Source: an uncultured Bacilli bacterium
GTDB taxonomy: Bacteria; Bacillota_I; Bacilli_A; RF39; UBA660
DNA: 64,000 nt
Direction: 5' to 3'
Assembly: GCA_934167695.1 (NCBI GenBank)
Contig: CAKPLP010000003.1
Coordinates: forward strand, 11,529 to 75,528
Shown: positions 6,654-44,383 of the stretch, piece after piece
How positions within the stretch are numbered: position 1 is the first letter of the stretch
Layout: each line of letters starts with the position of its first letter
Notes under the pieces: generated by a model
What the model saw: the letters and a program-made list of their open reading frames with translations, nothing else
Databases searched by the model: none
Told to the model about the DNA's origin: nothing
Program-made: the position numbers and the translations under genes

Positions 6654-6758
6654 AAAGAGAAATACTTATTTAGTATTTTTCTTTTTTTAAACAAAAAATT
6701 AATAAAAAATGTTATACTAATGATACTTAGTGTTAAATATTTATATGAGGAGGGTTAT

Positions 6759-8918
6759 ATGGTAGTAGGTGTTTTAGTAGAGTTATCTAATAAAAATATA
6801 GATAGAGTTTTTGATTATTTAGTAGATCCTTCTCTTGTAAATGATATTAAAGTTGGTATTAGAGTATTAGTTCCATTTGGGTATCAGAAGTTAGAAGGAT
6901 TTGTTGTTTGTATTAAGGATAGTTCTGATATTCAATTAAAGAAAATTATCTCTATTGTTGATCGTGAAGTTGTTTTAGATGAGGAGTTGTTGAAGCTTGG
7001 AAAGATAATGCAGGAGAAAACTTTATCTACTTTAATTAGTTGTTATCAAGTAATGCTTCCAAAGGCTTTAAAGGCTAAGAATGGTACGGTTATTTCTAAG
7101 AAGTTTGATACTTATTATAAACTTGGAGATATTTCTGGTAAATTTAATGATAGTCAAAGTAGAATTTTGAAGTTATTTAATAGTCATGAGCTTGTTTCAA
7201 GAAAGAAAATTTTGGCTATTTCTAGTAGTAGTTTGAAAACTTTAATAAATCGTGCTGTCTTGATTCCTGTTGTTAAAGAGCATTATCGTTTGGAGTATGA
7301 AAATAGTCCTTTGAAAAGTTATACTTTGACTGATGATCAACAAAGGGTTGTTGACGAATTTAACAATTCAAATGATTTAGTTTATTTATTACATGGTGTA
7401 ACTGGTTCTGGAAAAACGGAAGTTTATATGGAACTTATTAATAAAGTTTTAAATGATGGAAAAACGGCTATTGTTTTGGTTCCTGAAATTAGTCTTACTC
7501 CTCAGATGATAAAGCGTTTTATGGCTCGTTTTGGTGATAGAATTGCTGCAATTCATTCTGCTTTATCTGAGGGTGAAAAGTATGATGAATGGCGTAGGAT
7601 TGAAAGAGGAGAAGCATCTATTGTAATAGGGGCCCGTAGTGCATTGTTTAGTCCTATTAAAAATTTAGGACTTATTGTTATAGATGAAGAACATAGTGAT
7701 ACATATAAGCAGGATGATTCTAATCCTCGTTATAATGCTATAGAAATGGCTATAGAAAGATGTAGATTAAATGATGGATGTAAGTTGTTGTTAGGAAGTG
7801 CTACTCCATCACTTGAATCTTATGCAAGAAGCCAAAAGGGCATTTACCATTTACTTAAATTATTAAATCGTGTTAATAAGCATCCTCTTCCTAATATTGA
7901 ACTTGTTGATATGAATAAAAATTTTAAAACTAGTAAAGGTCATTTTTCTCTTGAACTTTTAAATAGAATAAAGCAAAAAATAGAATTAGGTGAACAGGTT
8001 ATTTTATTATTAAATAGAAGAGGATATTCTTCTTTTGTTTCTTGTAAAAACTGTGGTTATGTGTTTAAGTGTCCAAATTGTGATATTACCCTTACTTATC
8101 ATAAGAGTACAAATAATTTGAGATGTCATTATTGTGGATATGCTGATAATATTTCATCTATTTGTCCAGAATGTAAGGAAAACTCAATTACAACAATCGG
8201 AGTGGGCACTGAGAAGATTGAAGAGGAAATTAAGAATCTTATTCCAACTGCTAGAGTTGTTAGAATGGATTTTGATACAACTAGTAGAAAGGGTGCTCAT
8301 GAAAAAATAATTTCTAGTTTCAAAAATAGGGATTATGATATTTTACTTGGTACTCAGATAGTTGCAAAGGGACTTGATTTTGATAATGTTACTTTAGTGG
8401 GAGTTATAAATGCTGATACATCTTTAAATTTTCCTGATTTTAGAAGCAGTGAAACAACGTTTTCTTTACTTAGTCAAGTTGCAGGTAGAAGTGGTAGAAG
8501 TACTAAAGAAGGATCTGTTATTATTCAAACTTTTAATCCTGATCATTATGCTATTAATTTTGTTAAAAATCATGATTATATAGGTTTCTATAAAAGGGAA
8601 ATGTTATTAAGAAAACAGTTAAAATATCCGCCATTTTATTTTATTACTTATATTAGAATTAGTGGTAAAGATAGTAATATTTGCTATAGAGAAGCTATGA
8701 AAATAAAAAAGGCTTTAGAAAAATATTTAGATCAAACAATTATTTTAGGACCTAGTACTGCTAATATCTTTAAAGTAAGTAATATTTATAGATATGGAAT
8801 TATTTTAAAATATAAAAAGCAAGATAATTTAATAGATGTTTTAAATAAAATGATAGATGTATATAAAAGTAATAGAAATGTTACTATAGATTTAAATTTT
8901 AATCCGGGACATTTTTAA
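6759..8918 (+). CDS. priA: primosomal protein N' (replication restart helicase PriA)
   Basis: Walker A GVTGSGKTEVY. DEEH box. Cys-rich zinc-binding insert (CKNCGY..CPNCD..CHYCGY..CPEC). Start at MVVGV with a GAGGAGGG RBS. Confidence 0.9.
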   Translation: MVVGVLVELSNKNIDRVFDYLVDPSLVNDIKVGIRVLVPFGYQKLEGFVVCIKDSSDIQLKKIISIVDREVVLDEELLKLGKIMQEKTLSTLISCYQVMLPKALKAKNGTVISKKFDTYYKLGDISGKFNDSQSRILKLFNSHELVSRKKILAISSSSLKTLINRAVLIPVVKEHYRLEYENSPLKSYTLTDDQQRVVDEFNNSNDLVYLLHGVTGSGKTEVYMELINKVLNDGKTAIVLVPEISLTPQMIKRFMARFGDRIAAIHSALSEGEKYDEWRRIERGEASIVIGARSALFSPIKNLGLIVIDEEHSDTYKQDDSNPRYNAIEMAIERCRLNDGCKLLLGSATPSLESYARSQKGIYHLLKLLNRVNKHPLPNIELVDMNKNFKTSKGHFSLELLNRIKQKIELGEQVILLLNRRGYSSFVSCKNCGYVFKCPNCDITLTYHKSTNNLRCHYCGYADNISSICPECKENSITTIGVGTEKIEEEIKNLIPTARVVRMDFDTTSRKGAHEKIISSFKNRDYDILLGTQIVAKGLDFDNVTLVGVINADTSLNFPDFRSSETTFSLLSQVAGRSGRSTKEGSVIIQTFNPDHYAINFVKNHDYIGFYKREMLLRKQLKYPPFYFITYIRISGKDSNICYREAMKIKKALEKYLDQTIILGPSTANIFKVSNIYRYGIILKYKKQDNLIDVLNKMIDVYKSNRNVTIDLNFNPGHF

Positions 8919-35412: not shown

Positions 35413-35455
35413 TTTATATATAATAATAAGCATAATGTTTTTTGGAGGATGGATT

Positions 35456-37804
35456 ATGAATAGTGATTCTATTATTATATTTGTAAGTAATGATATTGTT
35501 TTGTTTCCAAACTCCGAAGTGCGCTTTGAGATTGATAATTCTTATGAAAAAGATCTTTTTAAATTAATTGACTCTACTACTAAAGATGTACTTATAGTAA
35601 ATCCTTATGAAAATGTTAACTTCCCTGATGTTACTATGCTTCCTAAAATTGGTGTATTGGCAAGATTAAATTTAGTAATGGACATGCCTAATGGAAAAAC
35701 AAAAATAACATTATTAGGGTTAAGAAGAGTTAATGTTTTTAATTATGCTATAAGTGACAGTATGATTTATACGGCAAATTATAATGATATAGAAACTCCA
35801 AAGGTAGTTGATGAACATTATAAAAATATTTTAATAAAAGCGTTAGATAGATATGTTAGTAAAGTGCCATATGTTTCTAATTCTGTTATGAGTAAGATTG
35901 ATTTTATGGATAATATTAGTGATCTTACTGATTTAATTATTAGCTTTTTACCATTTGATATGGATAAAAAGAAGTCCTATATTTTGGAACTTGATAGTTA
36001 TAAAAGATGCAAAATGCTTATAGAAGATATGAAAGATAGCATTAAGTATGTTGAATTAGAGGAGAAAATAGAAAAAGAAGTTGATAAAGAATTAGATGAT
36101 AGCCAAAGAGAATATTACTTAAGACAAAAAATTAGTGTTATTCAAAAAGAACTTGGTGATGTTGGTAGTAAAGATAATGAAATAAACAAGTTAAAGAAAA
36201 AGTTTAACCGTTTGAAATGTCCTCCAAAAATTAAATCTAGAATTAAACTTGAGTTGAATAGATATGAGAATACTCCTAGTAATTCACCAGAAATAACTTT
36301 GATACGTGATTATCTTGACTGGATGTTTGCACTTCCATGGAGTACCTTTACAAAAGATAATAATAATTTTGTAGATGTTATGAATATATTAAATGATTCT
36401 CATTATGGTATGAAGAAAGTTAAGCTTAGAATTTTGGAATATTTGGCTGTAAAACAAAATACTAATAGTTTAAAAAGTCCTATTATTTGTTTGGTTGGCC
36501 CTCCGGGTGTTGGAAAGACAAGTTTAGCTTTATCGATTGCAACTGCTCTTAATCGTAATGTTACTAAAATTTCTGTTGGTGGTATAAATGATGAGGCTGA
36601 AATAGTTGGACATAGAAGAACTTACGTAGGAGCTAATCCCGGAAGAATAATTCAAGGAATAAAAAGAGCTGGTAGTTCCAATCCTGTATTTATTATTGAT
36701 GAAATAGATAAAATGCGTAAAGATATAAAAGGTGATCCTGCTAGTAGCTTATTAGAGGTGTTGGATCCAGCTCAAAATTCTCATTTTTCTGATCATTATA
36801 TTGAGGAAGATTTTGATTTAAGTAAGGTTATGTTTATTGCCACTGCAAATTATATAGAACAAATTCCTTATGAGTTACAAGATAGATTGGAAATAATAGA
36901 AGTTCCCGGATATACTGAGTATGAAAAACTAGATATCGCTAAAAATTATATTATTCCTAAGGCAATGGATGAATGTGGACTGACCTTACTTAATGTTCAG
37001 TTTAGTGATGATGCTATAATGGACATTATTAGGTATTATACTAAAGAGGCTGGAGTAAGAGAATTGCAAAGAAAAATTGCTAGCATTTTAAGAAAAATAG
37101 TAAAAAAATTACTTACAAATAAGAAAATAGTATCTTATTATATAGATTCTGCTATGATTTATGAATTACTTGGAAAGAAGATATTTTTCTATAATGTTAT
37201 TGAAAAAGAAAAAAGAATAGGTGTTGTTAATGGTATGGCTTATACTATATTTGGTGGAGATGTGTTACCTATTGAGGCTACTTATTATAAGGGTTCTGGT
37301 AGACTTATTTTAACTGGTAGCCTAGGGGAAGTAATGAAGGAGTCTGCTAGTATTGCCCTAAGTTATGTAAGAGCTCATGCTACTGATTTTGGTATAGATA
37401 TTAATAGTTTACTTGAAAATGATATACATATTCATGTTCCTGAAGGAGCTGTTAATAAAGATGGGCCTAGTGCAGGTATTACTATAACTACTGTTTTAAT
37501 TAGTTTATTTAAAAATCAAGCAGTATCAAGTAATTTATCGATGACTGGTGAAATGACTTTATCTGGTAAAATTCTTCCTATTGGTGGAGTTAGAGAAAAA
37601 GTAATAGGTTCACATAGAGCAAAGATTAAAACAATATATTTACCTAAAGATAATCAATATGATTTAGATGAAATTGATGATGATATAAAGAAAGATATTA
37701 AGTTTGTTTTTATTGATAATTATGTAGAATTATATAATTTGTTATTTAAGGGGGAAGTAATGAGTGAAAAAAGAATTCGAAGAAAACGAATTATTAATGG
37801 ATGA
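35456..37804 (+). CDS. lon: ATP-dependent Lon protease
   Basis: Lon N-domain. AAA+ Walker A GPPGVGKTS. Walker B IIDEIDK. Protease domain with catalytic DGPSAG...K. Start at MNSDS, 6 nt after GGAGGA. Confidence 0.9.
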   Translation: MNSDSIIIFVSNDIVLFPNSEVRFEIDNSYEKDLFKLIDSTTKDVLIVNPYENVNFPDVTMLPKIGVLARLNLVMDMPNGKTKITLLGLRRVNVFNYAISDSMIYTANYNDIETPKVVDEHYKNILIKALDRYVSKVPYVSNSVMSKIDFMDNISDLTDLIISFLPFDMDKKKSYILELDSYKRCKMLIEDMKDSIKYVELEEKIEKEVDKELDDSQREYYLRQKISVIQKELGDVGSKDNEINKLKKKFNRLKCPPKIKSRIKLELNRYENTPSNSPEITLIRDYLDWMFALPWSTFTKDNNNFVDVMNILNDSHYGMKKVKLRILEYLAVKQNTNSLKSPIICLVGPPGVGKTSLALSIATALNRNVTKISVGGINDEAEIVGHRRTYVGANPGRIIQGIKRAGSSNPVFIIDEIDKMRKDIKGDPASSLLEVLDPAQNSHFSDHYIEEDFDLSKVMFIATANYIEQIPYELQDRLEIIEVPGYTEYEKLDIAKNYIIPKAMDECGLTLLNVQFSDDAIMDIIRYYTKEAGVRELQRKIASILRKIVKKLLTNKKIVSYYIDSAMIYELLGKKIFFYNVIEKEKRIGVVNGMAYTIFGGDVLPIEATYYKGSGRLILTGSLGEVMKESASIALSYVRAHATDFGIDINSLLENDIHIHVPEGAVNKDGPSAGITITTVLISLFKNQAVSSNLSMTGEMTLSGKILPIGGVREKVIGSHRAKIKTIYLPKDNQYDLDEIDDDIKKDIKFVFIDNYVELYNLLFKGEVMSEKRIRRKRIING

Positions 37805-38438
37805 GTTTTATTTAACGGGATTTAAATATTATTTATTGAGAGAATCAGATGAACAAATCAAAAATGTATATAATGATGAGGTTTTTAATTTTCTTTTAGA
37901 AAGAATTTTGTTGGAAGAACCATTATTTTTATTAGTAGATTCTTCTATATCTACAAAAATATTTAATTTTATTAGTAGTAATAGATTTAATGATAAGCAA
38001 AATTTAAAAAAATCAAATAATTATATTCTTATAATAAATGAAATTCTTTCTGTTGATGATATGAGGTTATTTAGAGAATATTATTTTACAAATATTTTAA
38101 GAAGATTTGGAAGGGGTTCTTTTGCTATTGAAATGATTAATCGTGCTGAGCAGGGTGATGATTTAATTAAATCAATGTTAAATGAGTTATATGCTTATGA
38201 TTATGTATATATGTGTAAGATTTTATTTAATAATTTTTCATCTTTAGAAAGTCATGATGAAGAATTGCTTTTCTTATCTTCAACTAATTATTTTTTAAGT
38301 CGTGATGTTAATTTATTTGATAATGATGTTAAAAATAATGTTTCAAATATAATTGATAATATTGATACTAAAGATAGTAAAAAATTAAAGAAAGTACTTA
38401 AAACTACTAAAAAGAATATTAAGAAATCTAGAATTTAA
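37764..38438 (+). CDS. hypothetical protein (224 aa) between lon and the sigma factor
   Basis: Intact ORF overlapping the lon 3' end (alternative start ATG 37797). No recognisable motif. Confidence 0.4.
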   Translation: MKKEFEENELLMDEFYLTGFKYYLLRESDEQIKNVYNDEVFNFLLERILLEEPLFLLVDSSISTKIFNFISSNRFNDKQNLKKSNNYILIINEILSVDDMRLFREYYFTNILRRFGRGSFAIEMINRAEQGDDLIKSMLNELYAYDYVYMCKILFNNFSSLESHDEELLFLSSTNYFLSRDVNLFDNDVKNNVSNIIDNIDTKDSKKLKKVLKTTKKNIKKSRI

Positions 38439-38476
38439 TAGTGTGTTAAAATATAACTTGTAAGGGGGATAAATAA

Positions 38477-40675
38477 ATGGAATTAAACTATAAAAATGTT
38501 CAACAATTAAATTCACAACAAATTTTAGATTTGTTATTACCTGATTTTTCTAATATTTATGAAAGTTTTAATTATATAGAAATATCAAAAAATGAATTTT
38601 ATGTTTTGGTATTAGATAGCATTACTAAATCAAAAAAGATGTATAATGGAGATGTTTTATATAAGGAATATATTGAAAGTGTGGTAACTAATAGACTTAT
38701 TGAGCATGTTAAATTAGATTTGTCTAAACCTGATAAAGCGGTTATTATTTTAAATAATTATATAAATAAATTTTTTAAGGTGGAAAATGATTTAGAAGAT
38801 AGGGTAAAGAAATTGGAATGTTTTTTTGAAATTTATAATTATATTCCTAGATCGAATTTATTAATAAAAGTAATAGAAAAAAATGAGTTTCTATCAAAAA
38901 CTATAGAATTAATTATTGATAAGTATAAGGACGATTTTTCTTATGATATTTTAGAAAATCAATTTAATGATAGTGTAATATTGTTATTTATAAAAACATA
39001 CTGTAGTTTAAATAATATTTTATTAAATGATGAGGTAAAAGTAGAGTGTGAAAAAAAATTATTAGATGATGTTAATTTTAATGAAGAAAATTATTTTCAA
39101 CAAATAAAAAAAATACCATTATTATCTATAGAAGAAGAGCAAAATTTGATAAAGCGTGCATTACAAGGTGAAATTGAAGCAAAAAATTTGTTAGTTTGTA
39201 GCAATTTAAGATTAGTTAATAGTATAGCTAAAAAATATATCGGTAGAGGAGTGCCGTTACAGGATTTAATTCAAGAAGGTAGCATTGGTTTGATGAAGGC
39301 AATAGATAAATTTGACTTAAGTAAAGGTGTAAAGTTTTCAACTTATGCTACATATTGGATAAGACAAGTTATTACTAGATCAATATATGATGTTGGTAAG
39401 GATATTAGAATACCAGTATATTTATATAAAAAAATTAATTCTTATAAAGATGCTTTACAAGAGTTGAGATTAGAGTTAAATAGGTATCCAACACTTGATG
39501 AAGTGGCAGCTAAAATGGATTTGCCTATATCTGAAGTTACAGAATTATTAAAATCTCAAGGTGATGTAGTAAGCATGAACACACTGGTTAATGATGAAAA
39601 TGATACTGAATTACAAGATTTTATTCCTAATACAGATGAGAGTCCTGATGAGTTAGCTATTACTACTGTTATGCAGGAGCAAGTAAGAGATTTAATACAA
39701 AATAGTTCTCTAAGTCAAAGAGAAATAGAAATATTAATGTTGAGATTTGGCTTTAATGATAATAAGATTATGACTCTTGAAGAGATAGGAAAAAAATTAA
39801 ATATAACAAAGTCAAGAGTTGGACAAATTGAAGCACAAGCATTAATTAAATTAAGAAAATCTAAAAAAATTAAACAATTTGCAGAATATATGTCTAATCC
39901 TGAACAGGCATTAAAACGTTTAGATGAGTTTAGAAAATATTATTATGAAAATAACCGTGCATATAAAAGCTTTTTATATGAAGATAAAGTAAAACAAAAA
40001 ATAGAAGTGGGAGAACATAGTATGCCAAGAAAATTAAAATCAATTTATGAATATCTTAGTGATTATTCGAAGGAACAGATTGATGAATTGATAGAAGAGT
40101 TACCTGAAGAAGATAAAGAATTAATTAAAGTAAGATATGGTAGTGATTTAAGTAAACCTGTAATAGGAAAATTATCTAAAAATCAAAGGGATAGATTTTA
40201 TGGAAGTCTTATTCCTAAAATGAGAAAAAATTTAAATAAAAAAAGTAAAGCTCAAAATATTAATAAAATTGTTCAATCTGATTCAAGGAAGAATGATTAT
40301 ACTGAACAATTAAAAAAAGTAAATCAATCTGCACAGGTACCTTTTAAAACAAATTTAGAAGATTCTAATATTAAGGAAAGTGAAGAATTGATTACAAAAG
40401 ATGATTATATTAAAATGTTAGAATTATTAAGAACTCCTAATTTTAGCCAAATGATAGCTGTTCTAACGGTAAAGGAAGCTGTAATTATTTCTTTAAAATT
40501 AGGATATGTAAATGGTGAATATTTTTCAACTGAGGCTATTGCTCAATTCTTAGGAATAGAAAAAGCCGAAGTTATAGAAACTACAAAAAAAGTGCTACTC
40601 TTATATAAAGAAAATATTAATCAGTTTATTGATCATGCAGTTGAAGTGATAGAAAAGAGTAAAATTAAAAAATAA
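38477..40675 (+). CDS. sigma-70 family RNA polymerase sigma factor (RpoD/SigA-like regions 1.2-4) with approximately 270-aa C-terminal extension
   Basis: Region 2 (LRLVNSIAKKYIGRGVPLQDLIQEGSIGLMKAIDKFDLSKGVKFSTYATYWIRQ). Region 3. Region 4.2 (LEEIGKKLNITKSRVGQIEAQALIKLRK). Then extra region-4-like repeats (ELIKVRYGSDL...; KEAVIISLKLGYVNGEYFSTEAIAQFLGIEKAEVIETTKKVLLLYK). Confidence 0.8.
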   Translation: MELNYKNVQQLNSQQILDLLLPDFSNIYESFNYIEISKNEFYVLVLDSITKSKKMYNGDVLYKEYIESVVTNRLIEHVKLDLSKPDKAVIILNNYINKFFKVENDLEDRVKKLECFFEIYNYIPRSNLLIKVIEKNEFLSKTIELIIDKYKDDFSYDILENQFNDSVILLFIKTYCSLNNILLNDEVKVECEKKLLDDVNFNEENYFQQIKKIPLLSIEEEQNLIKRALQGEIEAKNLLVCSNLRLVNSIAKKYIGRGVPLQDLIQEGSIGLMKAIDKFDLSKGVKFSTYATYWIRQVITRSIYDVGKDIRIPVYLYKKINSYKDALQELRLELNRYPTLDEVAAKMDLPISEVTELLKSQGDVVSMNTLVNDENDTELQDFIPNTDESPDELAITTVMQEQVRDLIQNSSLSQREIEILMLRFGFNDNKIMTLEEIGKKLNITKSRVGQIEAQALIKLRKSKKIKQFAEYMSNPEQALKRLDEFRKYYYENNRAYKSFLYEDKVKQKIEVGEHSMPRKLKSIYEYLSDYSKEQIDELIEELPEEDKELIKVRYGSDLSKPVIGKLSKNQRDRFYGSLIPKMRKNLNKKSKAQNINKIVQSDSRKNDYTEQLKKVNQSAQVPFKTNLEDSNIKESEELITKDDYIKMLELLRTPNFSQMIAVLTVKEAVIISLKLGYVNGEYFSTEAIAQFLGIEKAEVIETTKKVLLLYKENINQFIDHAVEVIEKSKIKK

Positions 40676-40721: not shown

Positions 40722-40758
40722 CATTTATTCATAATATTAATTGAATAGGAGGATATGT

Positions 40759-41598
40759 ATGAAAAAAACTTTATCTTTTGAAAAAGATTTAACATTTCAA
40801 ACAATGATTGGTGAAGTTAGTACTATTTCATTTGAAGATGATTTGAAATTTGTGGATAAGAGTAATATAGAAGGTAATTTTTATATTAGTGGTAAGTATA
40901 AAATGACTGAGGCTAGTACTTTAACTGAAGATTTTTCATTTAGTGTTCCAATAGAAATTGCTATGATGGAAGTGTATGATTTAACTACTACTAAAATTAG
41001 TATAGAAAACTTTAATTATGAGGTTATTGATGATGATGTATTAAGATGTAAAATTGATATTTTAATTGAAGGAAGAGAAGAAGTGGTTTTAGAGGATGAG
41101 AAGAGTACTTTAGATGAAAAGGTCTTAGATAGAGAATGTGATGACGATGATGTCTTGGAGGAAGAAAAAGAAATTCCAATAAAAGAAGATAAAAAGGATA
41201 ATGAAAAAGTAGAGGAGGCAGAGGTTGTGGAGGAAGAGGAAAAGTTAAATAATAATATTAATATTGATATGAAACAGGATATAAATATGGATATTATTCA
41301 AAATATTGAAAGTAAAAAAGATAATGAAGAAAAGGAGAAAAGGGATGAAGAAGTGGTAGCTGTTGTTGAAGATAAGCCTAAGAATACTACAATTAAGGTT
41401 AATTCTTTATTTGCAAATTTAGGTGATGATAATGATACATTTACAACTTATTCTGTTTATATTATGCGCGAAGGTGACACTGTTGAAAAAGTAATGGATC
41501 AGTATCAAGTAAAAAAAGAAGATTTGGAAATGTATAATGATTTAAGTACAATACAATTAAATTCTAAAGTAATTATTCCTACTAGTAGTGATGAATAA
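40759..41598 (+). CDS. SpoVID-like spore coat morphogenetic protein (N-terminal SpoVID-type domain, acidic middle, C-terminal LysM)
   Basis: N-terminus LSFEKDLTFQTMIGEVSTISFEDDLKF...GKYKMTE resembles the SpoVID N-domain pattern. Acidic E/D/K-rich linker. C-terminal LysM (YSVYIMREGDTVEKVMDQYQV...LEMYN). Followed by a ysxE-like gene as in B. subtilis. Confidence 0.55.
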   Translation: MKKTLSFEKDLTFQTMIGEVSTISFEDDLKFVDKSNIEGNFYISGKYKMTEASTLTEDFSFSVPIEIAMMEVYDLTTTKISIENFNYEVIDDDVLRCKIDILIEGREEVVLEDEKSTLDEKVLDRECDDDDVLEEEKEIPIKEDKKDNEKVEEAEVVEEEEKLNNNINIDMKQDINMDIIQNIESKKDNEEKEKRDEEVVAVVEDKPKNTTIKVNSLFANLGDDNDTFTTYSVYIMREGDTVEKVMDQYQVKKEDLEMYNDLSTIQLNSKVIIPTSSDE

Positions 41599-42502
41599 TA
41601 TATTAGAAAAGTATAATTTAAGAGTTGTAAAGTATAAATATATCAATACTGCTAAAATTATTAATACTGATGATGGTAAGTTTGTTATAAAAGAAAAAAA
41701 AAGAGAAGATAAGGATAAATTGTATGAATACTTATTATCTAGAGACTTTTCTTTCTTTTTGTATCCTGAGAATGATTTAAGAGATGATATTGAAATATAT
41801 GCTTATTTGGATGATGTTAAGATAGATAAGGAAGAAAAAGCTAAGGATCTTATGTATATAATTAGTGATTTACATAATAGGACTACTACTTATAAGAATA
41901 CAAATTTAGATAAAATTAAGGAAATATATGAGGCAAGAATTAATTTAATTGAATATTTAATGAACTATTATAATGACTTAGAGGAAGTATTTATGATGCA
42001 TGTTTATAATAGTCCTGCGGAGTATTTATTACTTAGAAACATAGATAAGATATATAATACATTACAGTATAGTAGAATGTTACTTGATGAATGGTATCAA
42101 TCTATTATAAAAACAAAAAAAGAAAGGATAGCCTTTCTTCATAATCATTTAAGTTTAGATCATTTCATTGATGGTAGAGAAGCTAAACTTATTAATTTTG
42201 ATTATTCTGAGTATAATAGTCCTATATATGACTTTATTCATTTTTATAAGAAGCATTATAAGGAATTAGATATGGAAAGTCTGTATGAAATATATAAGCA
42301 TAAATTTAAGTTTACGAGGGAAGAGGAATTATTATTTTTTATTGAATTAATGATTCCTTGCAAAATAAGTTTTACTAATAATAATTATAATAATTGTGTT
42401 ACTGTTTATGATTTAAATAAGTATTTGGATGTTACTAGAAGTTTTGTTTTAAAAGAGCAAGAGAAACATCAAAAAAGATATAATGAAAACGAGAAACAAT
42501 AA
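41591..42502 (+). CDS. CotS/YsxE-family spore coat protein (phosphotransferase-like)
   Basis: About 300 aa. Kinase-like fold signature (KLINFDYSEYNSPIYDFIHF). 8-nt overlap with the spoVID-like gene. Synteny with B. subtilis spoVID-ysxE. Confidence 0.6.
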   Translation: MNNILEKYNLRVVKYKYINTAKIINTDDGKFVIKEKKREDKDKLYEYLLSRDFSFFLYPENDLRDDIEIYAYLDDVKIDKEEKAKDLMYIISDLHNRTTTYKNTNLDKIKEIYEARINLIEYLMNYYNDLEEVFMMHVYNSPAEYLLLRNIDKIYNTLQYSRMLLDEWYQSIIKTKKERIAFLHNHLSLDHFIDGREAKLINFDYSEYNSPIYDFIHFYKKHYKELDMESLYEIYKHKFKFTREEELLFFIELMIPCKISFTNNNYNNCVTVYDLNKYLDVTRSFVLKEQEKHQKRYNENEKQ

Positions 42503-42744: not shown

Positions 42745-43518
42745 ATGAATAATAAGGGTTTTACTTTAGTGGAATTAATTGCAACTATTGCAATACTGGG
42801 GTTTGTGTCTTTGATGGCTTTTCCATCTATTAATAATGTTATATCTTCTAATAAGTCTAGTTCATGTAAGTATTATGAAAGGTCTATGATTGCTGCTGCG
42901 AAGAGTTTTATTCAGAAAGAAAAGTATGATATCATAGATGCATATAATGGTACTTTTCCTAGTAGTTTTGATATAGATTTAACTCAACTAATTATTTATG
43001 GTTATTTAGATGAGTATAAAGATAGTAAAACTAATATTAATACTGGTGCAAAAGTTGTTGTAAAATATGATCAAAGTAGTAATACATATATTTATAATAT
43101 TTCTAATTTAGTATGTAGTAGTAAGTCTAACAATAAAGAACTTTATTGTTCAGATCCTTCTAATCATTGTACTGGTGGTGAGTCTAAAAAGTATTTATTA
43201 CCGAATAATGAAGAGACTATTAATTTTAGAGATATTCCTACTAATGTTTTTCTTCAATCTTATAATAATCAGTTATCTCTTTGTACTAAGACTAGTGATT
43301 ATAGTTTAAAATGTTATAAAAATAATAATTATAATGGTTATATTAGTGAGTTAAGTAGTGATTCTAGTTGTTCTAATTTTGGGGATTTTTATCAATGTGA
43401 AGTTAGAACTGGTAGATGTAAAATATATAAAAATGGTAATGTTAGTTGTGATGATGATTATAATAGATGTTCAATCACATTAGATAAGGATGGTAAAACA
43501 AGTGGAAATTGTTCATAA
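42745..43518 (+). CDS. type IV prepilin-like protein (class III signal peptide GFTLVE) with Cys-rich 230-aa C-terminal domain
   Basis: MNNKGFTLVELIATIAILGFVSLMAF is a canonical prepilin N-terminal cleavage/methylation motif. About 13 Cys in the mature part. Confidence 0.65.
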   Translation: MNNKGFTLVELIATIAILGFVSLMAFPSINNVISSNKSSSCKYYERSMIAAAKSFIQKEKYDIIDAYNGTFPSSFDIDLTQLIIYGYLDEYKDSKTNINTGAKVVVKYDQSSNTYIYNISNLVCSSKSNNKELYCSDPSNHCTGGESKKYLLPNNEETINFRDIPTNVFLQSYNNQLSLCTKTSDYSLKCYKNNNYNGYISELSSDSSCSNFGDFYQCEVRTGRCKIYKNGNVSCDDDYNRCSITLDKDGKTSGNCS

Positions 43519-43580
43519 TGTTAGAAAAACATTTATAATTTTGTTATAATAATATTGTTGATTAGGAGATGGTTAGATTA

Positions 43581-44027
43581 ATGTATTGTAAAAACTGTGG
43601 AAGTGAAATTAGAAAAAACAGTAAATACTGTTCTAAATGTGGTACTAAAGTATTAGGTGAAGATATTAGTGAAAAAAAGAAAGAAAAAGAAAATGATTCC
43701 TCTTTTTGTAAGAATTGTGGCTGTAAGATAGAATCTAAAAATGTTTATTGTCCAAATTGTGGATATAATCTTATTAATAATACAAGTAATGTTAATAAAA
43801 ACTTAGTAGATGATCCTGTTGAAAGTTTTGTTATTTATGTTATTAGTTTTATTATACCACTCGTAGGTTTTATATTGTGGGTAATTACTAGAAAGGAAAA
43901 TCCTAAACGTGCAAAGAATATTTTAATAGTATCTTTTGTTTCTATTATTAGTGCAATTCTTTTAGTAGTTTTGGTATTGTTATTTGTTTCAGTTTATTTT
44001 TTTAATAGTTATGGAGGTGTATTATAA
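43581..44027 (+). CDS. double zinc-ribbon membrane protein (2 x CxxC-N-CxxC + two C-terminal TM helices)
   Basis: MYCKNCGSEIRKNSKYCSKCG and CKNCGCKIESKNVYCPNCG. C-terminal TMs. Alternative start ATG 43569. Confidence 0.55.
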   Translation: MYCKNCGSEIRKNSKYCSKCGTKVLGEDISEKKKEKENDSSFCKNCGCKIESKNVYCPNCGYNLINNTSNVNKNLVDDPVESFVIYVISFIIPLVGFILWVITRKENPKRAKNILIVSFVSIISAILLVVLVLLFVSVYFFNSYGGVL

Positions 44028-44383
44028 TGTATTGTAAAAAATGTAATAATAAAATTGATGAAGGAAGTAAGTTTTGTAGTTTTTGTGGAAGTAAAGTTGA
44101 AGAGGATGTAAATGTTGGTAAGGTTTATTGTACTCACTGTGGTGAACAGATAGATGATAATTTGAGTGTTTGTCCGTATTGTGGAAAAAGTGTTAAAAAT
44201 ACTGTTGTAGATAAGGATGATACTGAAAACTATTGGCTTGAAGTTTTGGGATTTTTAATACCTTTTGTTGGTCTTATAATTTGGTTGAGTATTAAAAGTA
44301 AATCGCCAGTAAAAGCTCAAGGTGTTTTAAGAACTACTGTTATAGGTTTTATATTTTGGTTTGTTTGGAATATTCTTTTTTAA
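44027..44383 (+). CDS. double zinc-ribbon membrane protein, paralog of the upstream gene
   Basis: MYCKKCNNKIDEGSKFCSFCG + CTHCGEQIDDNLSVCPYCG. Two C-terminal TMs. TAATG stop/start overlap. Confidence 0.55.
   Translation: MYCKKCNNKIDEGSKFCSFCGSKVEEDVNVGKVYCTHCGEQIDDNLSVCPYCGKSVKNTVVDKDDTENYWLEVLGFLIPFVGLIIWLSIKSKSPVKAQGVLRTTVIGFIFWFVWNILF

Follow-up and report, generated by a model that had tools for sequence, protein, structure and literature searches.

A sigma-70 family protein of uncultured Bacilli with a C-terminal tail of region-4-derived modules

Introduction

Sigma factors are among the best-studied bacterial regulators. We analysed a 64,000-nucleotide (nt) stretch of DNA, hereafter the window, from an uncultured Bacilli bacterium (contig CAKPLP010000003.1 of assembly GCA_934167695.1, positions 11,529 to 75,528), and focused on one of its genes, which encodes a 732-amino-acid (aa) sigma-70 family protein. 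The gene occupies 38477..40675 on the + strand; according to the open reading frame (ORF) list and its translation, the frame opens with an ATG and closes with a stop codon at 40673-40675, and a ribosome-binding site, AAGGGGG (38462..38468, +), can be read from the sequence 8 nt 5' of the ATG. An initial annotation, made from the letters alone, had described a sigma factor that runs on past its region 4 into further region-4-like repeats, and had proposed that these might form additional promoter-reading modules or an autoinhibitory domain, with a hint of a role in sporulation.

Architecture of the sigma protein

The protein contains a complete sigma core. Pfam places region 1.2 at aa 206-231 (39092..39169, +; PF00140, 22.1 bits, barely over the cut-off of 22), region 2 at aa 240-303 (39194..39385, +; PF04542, E 1e-18, 67.3 bits), region 3 at aa 319-392 (39431..39652, +; PF04539, E 1.1e-16, 61.1 bits), and the true region 4 at aa 411-461 (39707..39859, +; PF04545, E 3.2e-17, 62.2 bits). 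All four exceed the Pfam gathering scores, placing the protein in the sigma-70 family and bearing out the core of regions 1.2, 2, 3 and 4 that had been read from the sequence, at aa 206-461. Approximately 205 residues lie N-terminal to the core and 271 lie C-terminal to it, the latter being the long extension that had also been noted. The top NCBIfam match is RpoD, at 275.8 bits against a cut-off of 572 (NF006666), and the RpoD equivalog model TIGR02393 likewise scores below its cut-off (267.8 bits versus 354). Region 1.1 (PF03979), present in canonical relatives, has no match at E <=10 in the whole protein or in aa 1-205. With regions 1.2 to 4 present and region 1.1 absent, the protein resembles group-2 sigma factors in its predicted domain content. 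The recognition helix of region 4.2 (aa 445-450, 39809-39826) reads K-S-R-V-G-Q here, versus the SigA-like R-E-R-V-R-Q in 24 of 29 relatives, a substitution pattern that suggests an altered -35 preference in this species. The family consensus retains SigA-like residues in regions 2.4 and 4.2. In region 2.3, the window protein has Y at the W433-equivalent residue.

Downstream of region 4, two linker helices (aa 463-492, IKQFAEYMSNPEQAL...; 39863..39952, +) are supported by family conservation and by AlphaFold2, with a predicted local distance difference test score (pLDDT) of 65-85, and are followed by a disordered stretch (aa 493-518, pLDDT <50). A middle module then spans aa 519-605 (40031..40291, +), where hhalign, sub-threshold Pfam matches and AlphaFold2 indicate acidic region-4.1-like helices and a long basic helix with a charge of +10. 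Between it and the terminal module lies a variable disordered linker (aa 606-639; 40292..40393, +; pLDDT <50), whose length in family members is 0-86 aa. The terminal module itself (aa 640-732; 40394..40672, +) has a degenerate region-4 fold, as judged by hhalign, a profile search of the Protein Data Bank (PDB), and AlphaFold2 with Foldseek, with its helix-turn-helix (HTH) part at approximately aa 655-712 and an acidic 'recognition' helix.

The terminal ~90 aa are a true region-4 homolog by profile and fold, one that is missed by Pfam thresholds. The homologous stretch, around aa 655-712, reads KEAVIISLKLGY...LLLYK. When sub-alignments of the terminal module and of the family's own region 4 were compared by hhalign, they matched at 96.2% (E 2.7e-9) across 49 columns spanning 4.1 and the HTH; the control comparisons gave 45% for region 3 versus region 4 and 1.8% for region 2 versus region 4. 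Searched against 177,635 PDB sequences, the terminal-module profile returned sigma-A region-4 chains as its 13 best matches (1tty at E 5.4e-7, 1rio_H at 8.7e-7), and a hidden Markov model (HMM) of the module also matches the true region 4 in canonical RpoDs. In the AlphaFold2 model of aa 463-732, the terminal module is helical (pLDDT ~80-95), and the top Foldseek matches to the tail model all contain sigma region 4, with target template-modelling (TM) scores of 0.84 for 1rio_H (root-mean-square deviation 1.6 A over 60 residues), 0.72 for 6onu_F and 0.67 for 1ku7_A. Since the query model comprises two domains, the Foldseek E-values were modest, at 5e-3 to 4e-2. Pfam PF04545 and PF08281 have no region-4 match in the final 91 aa of the window protein, and terminal modules of 3 of 23 family members have sub-threshold region-4 matches, the best at E 0.0036. 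On isolated tail pieces, Pfam gave a sub-threshold r4_2 match and a weak DUF722 match (E 0.008); matches to FakA-like_C, DUF668 and MA-Mit were at chance level and were set aside. The initial annotation had aligned the final stretch with region 4.2 and had taken a Pfam count of one region 4 as an argument against its reading. Pfam does count one above threshold, but given the homology by profile and fold this test is too insensitive; the alignment was sound, and a tail built of region-4-derived modules is supported.

The middle module is half a region 4, in which 4.1 is kept and one long basic helix takes the place of the HTH. The repeat reads EEDKELIKVRYG..., and hhalign against region 4 gives 94.3% (E 1e-7) over 30 columns only, covering 4.1 up to LRYG. 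Pfam r4_2 matches it below threshold over half of the model (E 8e-4), as sub-threshold Pfam region-4 matches do for the middle modules of 11 of 21 members, and the PDB profile search was marginal (E 0.016 or worse). AlphaFold2 models a compact domain (pLDDT 91-96) in which three short helices are accompanied by a single long one at the place expected for the HTH. The second, weaker repeat that had been suspected between region 4 and the C-terminus is therefore homologous to region 4.1 and has no predicted HTH half.

We asked what this architecture implies for DNA recognition. R584, E585, R588 and Q589 of sigma-70 have established -35-contact roles. At the six terminal-module positions aligned with R-E-R-V-R-Q, family members carry a variable Q/E/P, a variable Q/E/D, E (28 of 29 members), V, I or R, and E/D; mapped by eye onto E. 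coli sigma-70 numbering, the first three and last two of these are the equivalents of R584, E585, R586, R588 and Q589. The HTH part of the terminal module has a mean net charge of -1.6, compared with +3.9 for the real region 4. Because the contact positions are acidic or hydrophobic and the net charge is negative, a second -35 reader is unlikely, and canonical -35-type contact by the terminal module is not what its residues predict. The suggestion of two -35-binding HTHs is thus not borne out, the middle module having no predicted HTH at all. The long helix of the middle module, with a family mean charge of +6 and +10 in the window protein, could touch DNA nonspecifically.

At the other end of the protein, the N-terminal ~200-aa domain has a confident all-alpha AlphaFold2 fold (pLDDT 90.5, predicted TM score 0.81). 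Foldseek with this model returned nothing significant, and sequence-profile searches with the domain found no match. A 'sigma-2-like' identity for it is a lead and not a result. Neither this domain nor the middle or terminal module is represented by a model in Pfam, NCBIfam, PADLOC or PHROGs.

Distribution of the family

The unusual architecture is conserved. Copies 100% identical to the 732-aa protein occur on 6 contigs of independent assemblies, the open frame is intact in 8 species-level variants (>90% identity), and ~35 homologs can be aligned end to end at 31-50% identity. Within the species, the middle module is the best conserved part, with 0-1 changes per 87 residues in 6 of 7 variants, and is under selection; the linker at aa 606-639 is the most variable part of the protein.

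A phmmer search with the terminal module against 1.84 billion representatives matched 636 clusters, defined at 50% identity, at E <=1e-3, and 377 at E <=1e-10. The carriers are uncultured Bacilli of low guanine-plus-cytosine (GC) content, and the architecture recurs across hundreds of protein clusters. In every full-length match listed the terminal module is C-terminal, except in P0136, where the best stretch lies ~120 residues before the end.

A module census distinguished two classes of carrier. Type A proteins, like the window protein, consist of the N-terminal domain, a SigA-like core, a linker, 1-7 middle modules and 1-2 terminal modules; P0151, at 1347 aa, has seven of the former and two of the latter. 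Type B proteins (P0136, P0144, P0145, P0153, P0173 and P0205; loci L099, L100, L105 and L108) have a ~210-aa core followed by 0-3 middle and 1-2 terminal modules; the best NCBIfam matches of these cores are the sporulation factors SigK/SigE, at a sub-cut-off 160-215 bits, and no pro-sequence is present. Contigs of these SigE/K-like tail carriers are short (1.4-2.1 kb). Two SigE/K-like tail-bearing genes stand in tandem in L105, and P0136 has two terminal modules. Since the same cassette occurs on SigA-like and on SigE/K-like cores, with 0-7 middle copies, the tail is a portable sigma appendage.

Some members lack a tail and have the N-terminal domain and core only. One such arrangement is L010 5001-8025, downstream of dnaK-pepF-dnaJ-recX, where tandem paralogs of 464 and 500 aa have the N-terminal domain and sigma core and no tail. 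Elsewhere, at L003 9318-9992, a stand-alone 224-aa protein is encoded directly upstream of the distant member P0075 and ends in a terminal module (HMM E 1.8e-10); it also has a weak match to the extracytoplasmic function (ECF) sigma superfamily (E 0.0036), and it may be a free-standing partner or mimic.

Two members contain a fresh duplication of region 4. In the 852-aa type A protein of L102 and in P0023, region 4 and its linker occur twice in a row with near-identical sequence (at approximately aa 415-490 and 505-590 in L102), followed by middle and terminal modules. Duplications of this kind, here recent, would yield middle and terminal modules once the copies decay, and in this type of protein the proposal of two or three region-4 modules in one sigma factor holds literally, with two near-identical true region 4 copies.

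Nothing pointed to a phage or mobile origin: the tail had no tblastn match among 50,697 phage records, an IMG/VR scan and PHROGs were likewise negative, and no plasmid-like signal was seen.

Genomic context

The sigma gene lies downstream of lon (35435-37804), separated from it by a 224-aa ORF (37764..38438, +) which begins at a GTG, shares 41 nt with the end of lon and has no match in Pfam, NCBIfam, PADLOC or PHROGs. On its other side are a spoVID-like gene (40759-41598; TIGR02907, E 1.7e-9, 37.7 bits versus a cut-off of 169.85; Pfam SPOCS_spoVID-N, E 0.0024) and a ysxE-like gene (41588-42502; TIGR02904, E 4.4e-17, 62.3 bits versus a cut-off of 263.55). The position between lon and these two genes had been correctly recognized at both ends, with the 224-aa ORF overlooked. 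All three of these matches are below the curated cut-offs, but the NCBIfam E-values are significant, marking the two products as distant homologs. The spoVID-like protein has a LysM-like C-terminus and an acidic low-complexity middle, and of its candidate starts the ATG at 40759, preceded by an AGGAGG site, is likelier than the TTG at 40741. A survey preprint lists spoVID and ysxE as missing from Erysipelotrichaceae (10.1101/2022.02.25.481979); divergent versions may therefore have been overlooked. Just downstream of the ysxE-like gene, at 42745-44383, are a pilin-like gene with an N-terminal methylation motif and then two small zinc-ribbon proteins.

The syntenic region of a relative whose Lon is 76% identical (L097/L098) differs in content between lon and the spoVID-like gene. 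There, lon is followed by an Mrr-family restriction endonuclease gene (L097 12362-13372), then by spoVID-like (~80% identical) and ysxE-like (67%) genes, and neither the sigma gene nor the 224-aa ORF is present; overall, the spoVID-like and ysxE-like pair is conserved at 67-81% identity in the relative. The locus is thus a backbone of lon, a variable slot, spoVID-like and ysxE-like, and it is this slot that received the sigma gene and the 224-aa ORF as an insertion specific to the lineage. Because the relative holds Mrr in this slot, the adjacency to sporulation genes here is incidental, and the sporulation role that the neighbours had hinted at does not hold at this locus. A weak link remains at the level of the family: ~5 of 12 loci lie beside sporulation genes, namely spoVID/ysxE-like (here), yabP/yqfD, a 257-aa sigma gene with PRC, spoIIP, and gerM; in addition, SigE/K-like sigma factors bear the tail as well. 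A conserved neighbourhood for the family was rejected, as ~12 loci all differ. A four-gene cassette seemingly shared with P0075, on account of 224-, 295- and 285-aa genes of matching lengths, was also discarded, BLAST showing no relation to the window neighbours. The Mrr gene of the relative had raised the idea of a defence system, which gained no support: PADLOC matches the generic sigma core only.

The gene is also, as the initial annotation had said, outside a dnaG-rpoD context. A dnaG-sigA operon is typical of Firmicutes (PMC2824700). The 64-kb window contains no dnaG, and the sigma gene is flanked instead by lon and the 224-aa ORF on one side and the spoVID-like gene on the other. None of the loci examined has a family gene directly after dnaG; that position is taken by the canonical RpoD P0112 and by the SigA of L102, the only locus that carries dnaG as well as a family gene. 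L102 (9.9 kb, 24.7% GC) encodes, in order between 30 and 7300, dnaG, a 366-aa SigA, trmK, gerM and the 852-aa type A member, which is 41% identical to the window protein. Its SigA matches S. aureus and B. subtilis SigA at ~500 bits over the full length, whereas the window protein scores 223-236 bits against the same chains, over the core only. The shared contig of a family member and a canonical dnaG-sigA marks the family as a SigA paralog and not the housekeeping sigma factor; it shows coexistence with a primary sigma, as in group 2, in a 41%-identical relative, and such coexistence is probable for the window's own genome. The family is fast-evolving. Core identity of the window protein is 39-54% with family members and 36-49% with canonical RpoDs; in a core tree the family is star-like, in contrast to the tight cluster of canonical RpoDs. 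For Lon from this genome, relatives are found at 81, 76 and 75% identity, compared with 48-50% for the best sigma relative.

Named relatives of the window proteins are metagenome-assembled genomes labelled 'Erysipelotrichaceae bacterium' and 'Bacilli bacterium'. The window has a GC content of 26-27% and a strongly positive GC skew, which runs from +0.16 to +0.46 in each 2-kb bin of 1-64000, and the + strand carries almost every gene, which places the entire window on one leading-strand replichore. A promoter and terminator scan around the sigma gene found no enrichment versus shuffles, a result that is uninformative at 26% GC. The PriA gene at 6720-8918 also encodes 732 aa, a coincidence.

Discussion

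Taken together, these observations lead us to a reading that we put at about an even chance: the protein is an accessory, SigA-derived sigma factor whose tail of decayed region-4 copies serves as a tethered regulatory appendage and not as a second -35 reader. The core at aa 205-462 would bind core RNA polymerase and read promoters as usual. Region 4 would have been duplicated serially and the copies would then have decayed to form the 270-aa tail, one becoming the middle module, with 4.1 kept and a single long basic helix replacing the HTH, and another becoming the terminal module, with the region-4 fold kept and the DNA-contact arginines lost; both modules would hang on disordered linkers. 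For the tail's binding partners and its effect on activity, we infer that the terminal pseudo-region-4 acts as a protein-binding mimic, which might engage the beta-flap tip, region-4-directed regulators or the sigma factor's own domains, and that the basic middle-module helix could provide a nonspecific tether to upstream DNA. An intramolecular regulatory or autoinhibitory domain, one of the two options in the initial annotation, would fit better than two -35-binding HTHs.

Several points weigh against this reading. Pfam at its own thresholds sees one region 4 only. The strongly conserved T-T-K-K on the terminal 'recognition' helix and the very basic middle-module helix (+10) leave room for non-canonical DNA binding. 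The N-terminal domain occurs without the tail and the tail without the N-terminal domain, so that the two are not an obligate pair, and a PhyR-like pseudo-sigma formed by obligate pairing of the N-terminal domain and the terminal module was down-weighted on the same grounds. Finally, we infer a canonical sigA beside the window's own sigma gene from a relative at 41% identity.

The rival explanations share some of this evidence. If the terminal module, and perhaps the middle module, were a second DNA-reading region 4, the holoenzyme would recognize a longer promoter that includes an additional element, either -35-like or upstream. The terminal module does retain the full region-4 fold, its 'recognition' helix is among the best-conserved parts (E698 in 28 of 29 members, and T-T-K-K), the middle module supplies a long basic helix, and, from the established geometry of the holoenzyme, a tail emerging from region 4 would be near upstream DNA. 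We nevertheless consider a DNA-reading tail quite improbable, as the equivalents of R584, R586, R588 and Q589 are acidic or hydrophobic in a net-negative HTH part, the middle module has no predicted HTH, and 0-7 middle-module copies are a poor fit to a fixed promoter element. Somewhat less remote, though still doubtful, is a sporulation or differentiation sigma factor whose tail is a C-terminal 'pro-domain'; as in pro-sigma-E and pro-sigma-K, the protein would stay inactive for as long as this domain is neither cleaved nor displaced. Sporulation genes are present in the organism and adjoin 5 of ~12 family loci, the same tail is found on SigE/K-like cores that have no N-terminal pro-sequence, disordered linkers would suit cleavage, and Erysipelotrichaceae are reported to be without several pro-sigma-K processing regulators (10.1101/2022.02.25.481979). 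Set against this, the adjacency at the window locus is incidental, neighbourhoods are not conserved, and many loci fall in the sigA/dnaK/lepA region, where sporulation genes are common in any case.

The protein might instead be the housekeeping sigma factor of its lineage, a SigA ortholog with lineage-specific insertions at both ends. Its top family match is RpoD, the Prokaryotic Genome Annotation Pipeline (PGAP) calls one member 'RpoD/SigA', the family consensus has SigA-like 2.4 and 4.2 residues, and no canonical sigA was found for this genome, of which 64 kb only are visible. Yet a canonical dnaG-sigA accompanies a family member on L102, L010 has tandem paralogs, the family gene is never immediately 3' of dnaG and is missing from the syntenic slot of a close relative, its evolution is much faster than that of Lon, and its score is about half of the RpoD cut-off, all of which makes this explanation very unlikely. 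As for an assembly, frameshift or fusion artefact joining rpoD to a downstream gene, which the initial annotation had named as a possible refutation, only the unusual protein length speaks for it; with the identical protein on 6 contigs of independent assemblies, the frame kept in 8 variants and the architecture kept in >100 clusters at 31-50% identity, the conservation data rule it out for practical purposes.

Returning to a tethered regulatory appendage, a broader and more speculative proposal, to which we give little weight as yet, is that the cassette of a variable number of middle modules and a terminal module is a new portable sigma-regulating device, used by SigA-like and SigE/K-like paralogs alike in spore-forming low-GC gut Bacilli, in which a tethered pseudo-region-4 competes with the real region 4 for region-4-directed regulators or the beta-flap tip. 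If so, the outcome would be either autoinhibition in cis or switching between promoters used with and without a -35 element, and the cassette might substitute for lost pro-sigma processing controls; with a possibly sigma-2-like N-terminal domain, a working sigma factor would be wrapped in decayed copies of sigma domains. Should the tail prove to be an in-cis sigma mimic, it would represent a new way to control sigma activity and would offer a natural decay series from DNA-binding to regulatory function, running from the fresh duplicate of L102 through the middle module to the terminal module. The family also exposes a sizeable annotation blind spot in gut Bacilli, with 636 clusters and two sigma classes now named 'sigma-70 family' or 'RpoD/SigA', and annotation pipelines should not call these proteins housekeeping sigma factors.

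A full-text literature search returned no description of a sigma factor whose tail consists of degenerate region-4 copies in variable number. Parts of the design have parallels, none of which shows the full architecture. MzaA of the MZA anti-phage system (NCBIfam NF041931, PADLOC PDLC02203) is likewise a ~700-aa multi-domain protein with a SigA-like core; the window protein, however, has only generic core matches to it, at 260 bits versus a cut-off of 800 (168 bits in PADLOC), the core of MzaA is C-terminal, and PADLOC has no match for the window protein's N-terminal domain or tail. Region 1.1 of sigma-70 and the pro-sequences of sigma-E and sigma-K are similarly tethered, partly acidic segments that could mask or compete with functional surfaces, but they are N-terminal and of unrelated fold, whereas the tail here is C-terminal. 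Group 2 sigma factors (RpoS, cyanobacterial SigB-E, Streptomyces HrdA-D) share regions 1.2, 2, 3 and 4 without region 1.1 and derive from the primary sigma factor; like them, the family coexists with a canonical primary sigma in the relative L102, and its consensus keeps primary-like -10 and -35 residues. Unlike them, this family combines a 200-aa N-terminal domain with a 270-aa region-4-derived tail, found in no described group 2 sigma, and is far faster-evolving, with variable copy number and tail length.

Further analogies concern regulation in cis and mimicry. ECF41, ECF42 and ECF56/SigG1 (PMC7671368, PMC7826278, PMC7730460) also have a C-terminal extension thought to modulate the sigma factor in cis, with no separate anti-sigma gene, but they append SnoaL-like, tetratricopeptide repeat (TPR) or other unrelated folds to a two-domain ECF core, whereas here degenerate sigma domains follow a four-region SigA core. 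PhyR of Alphaproteobacteria (PMC4551977, PMC4598750) offers a precedent for degenerate, non-DNA-reading sigma domains as protein-binding mimics. PhyR is a separate receiver-domain protein that titrates the anti-sigma factor NepR; the window protein has no receiver domain in Pfam, and its putative mimic is fused to a working sigma factor.

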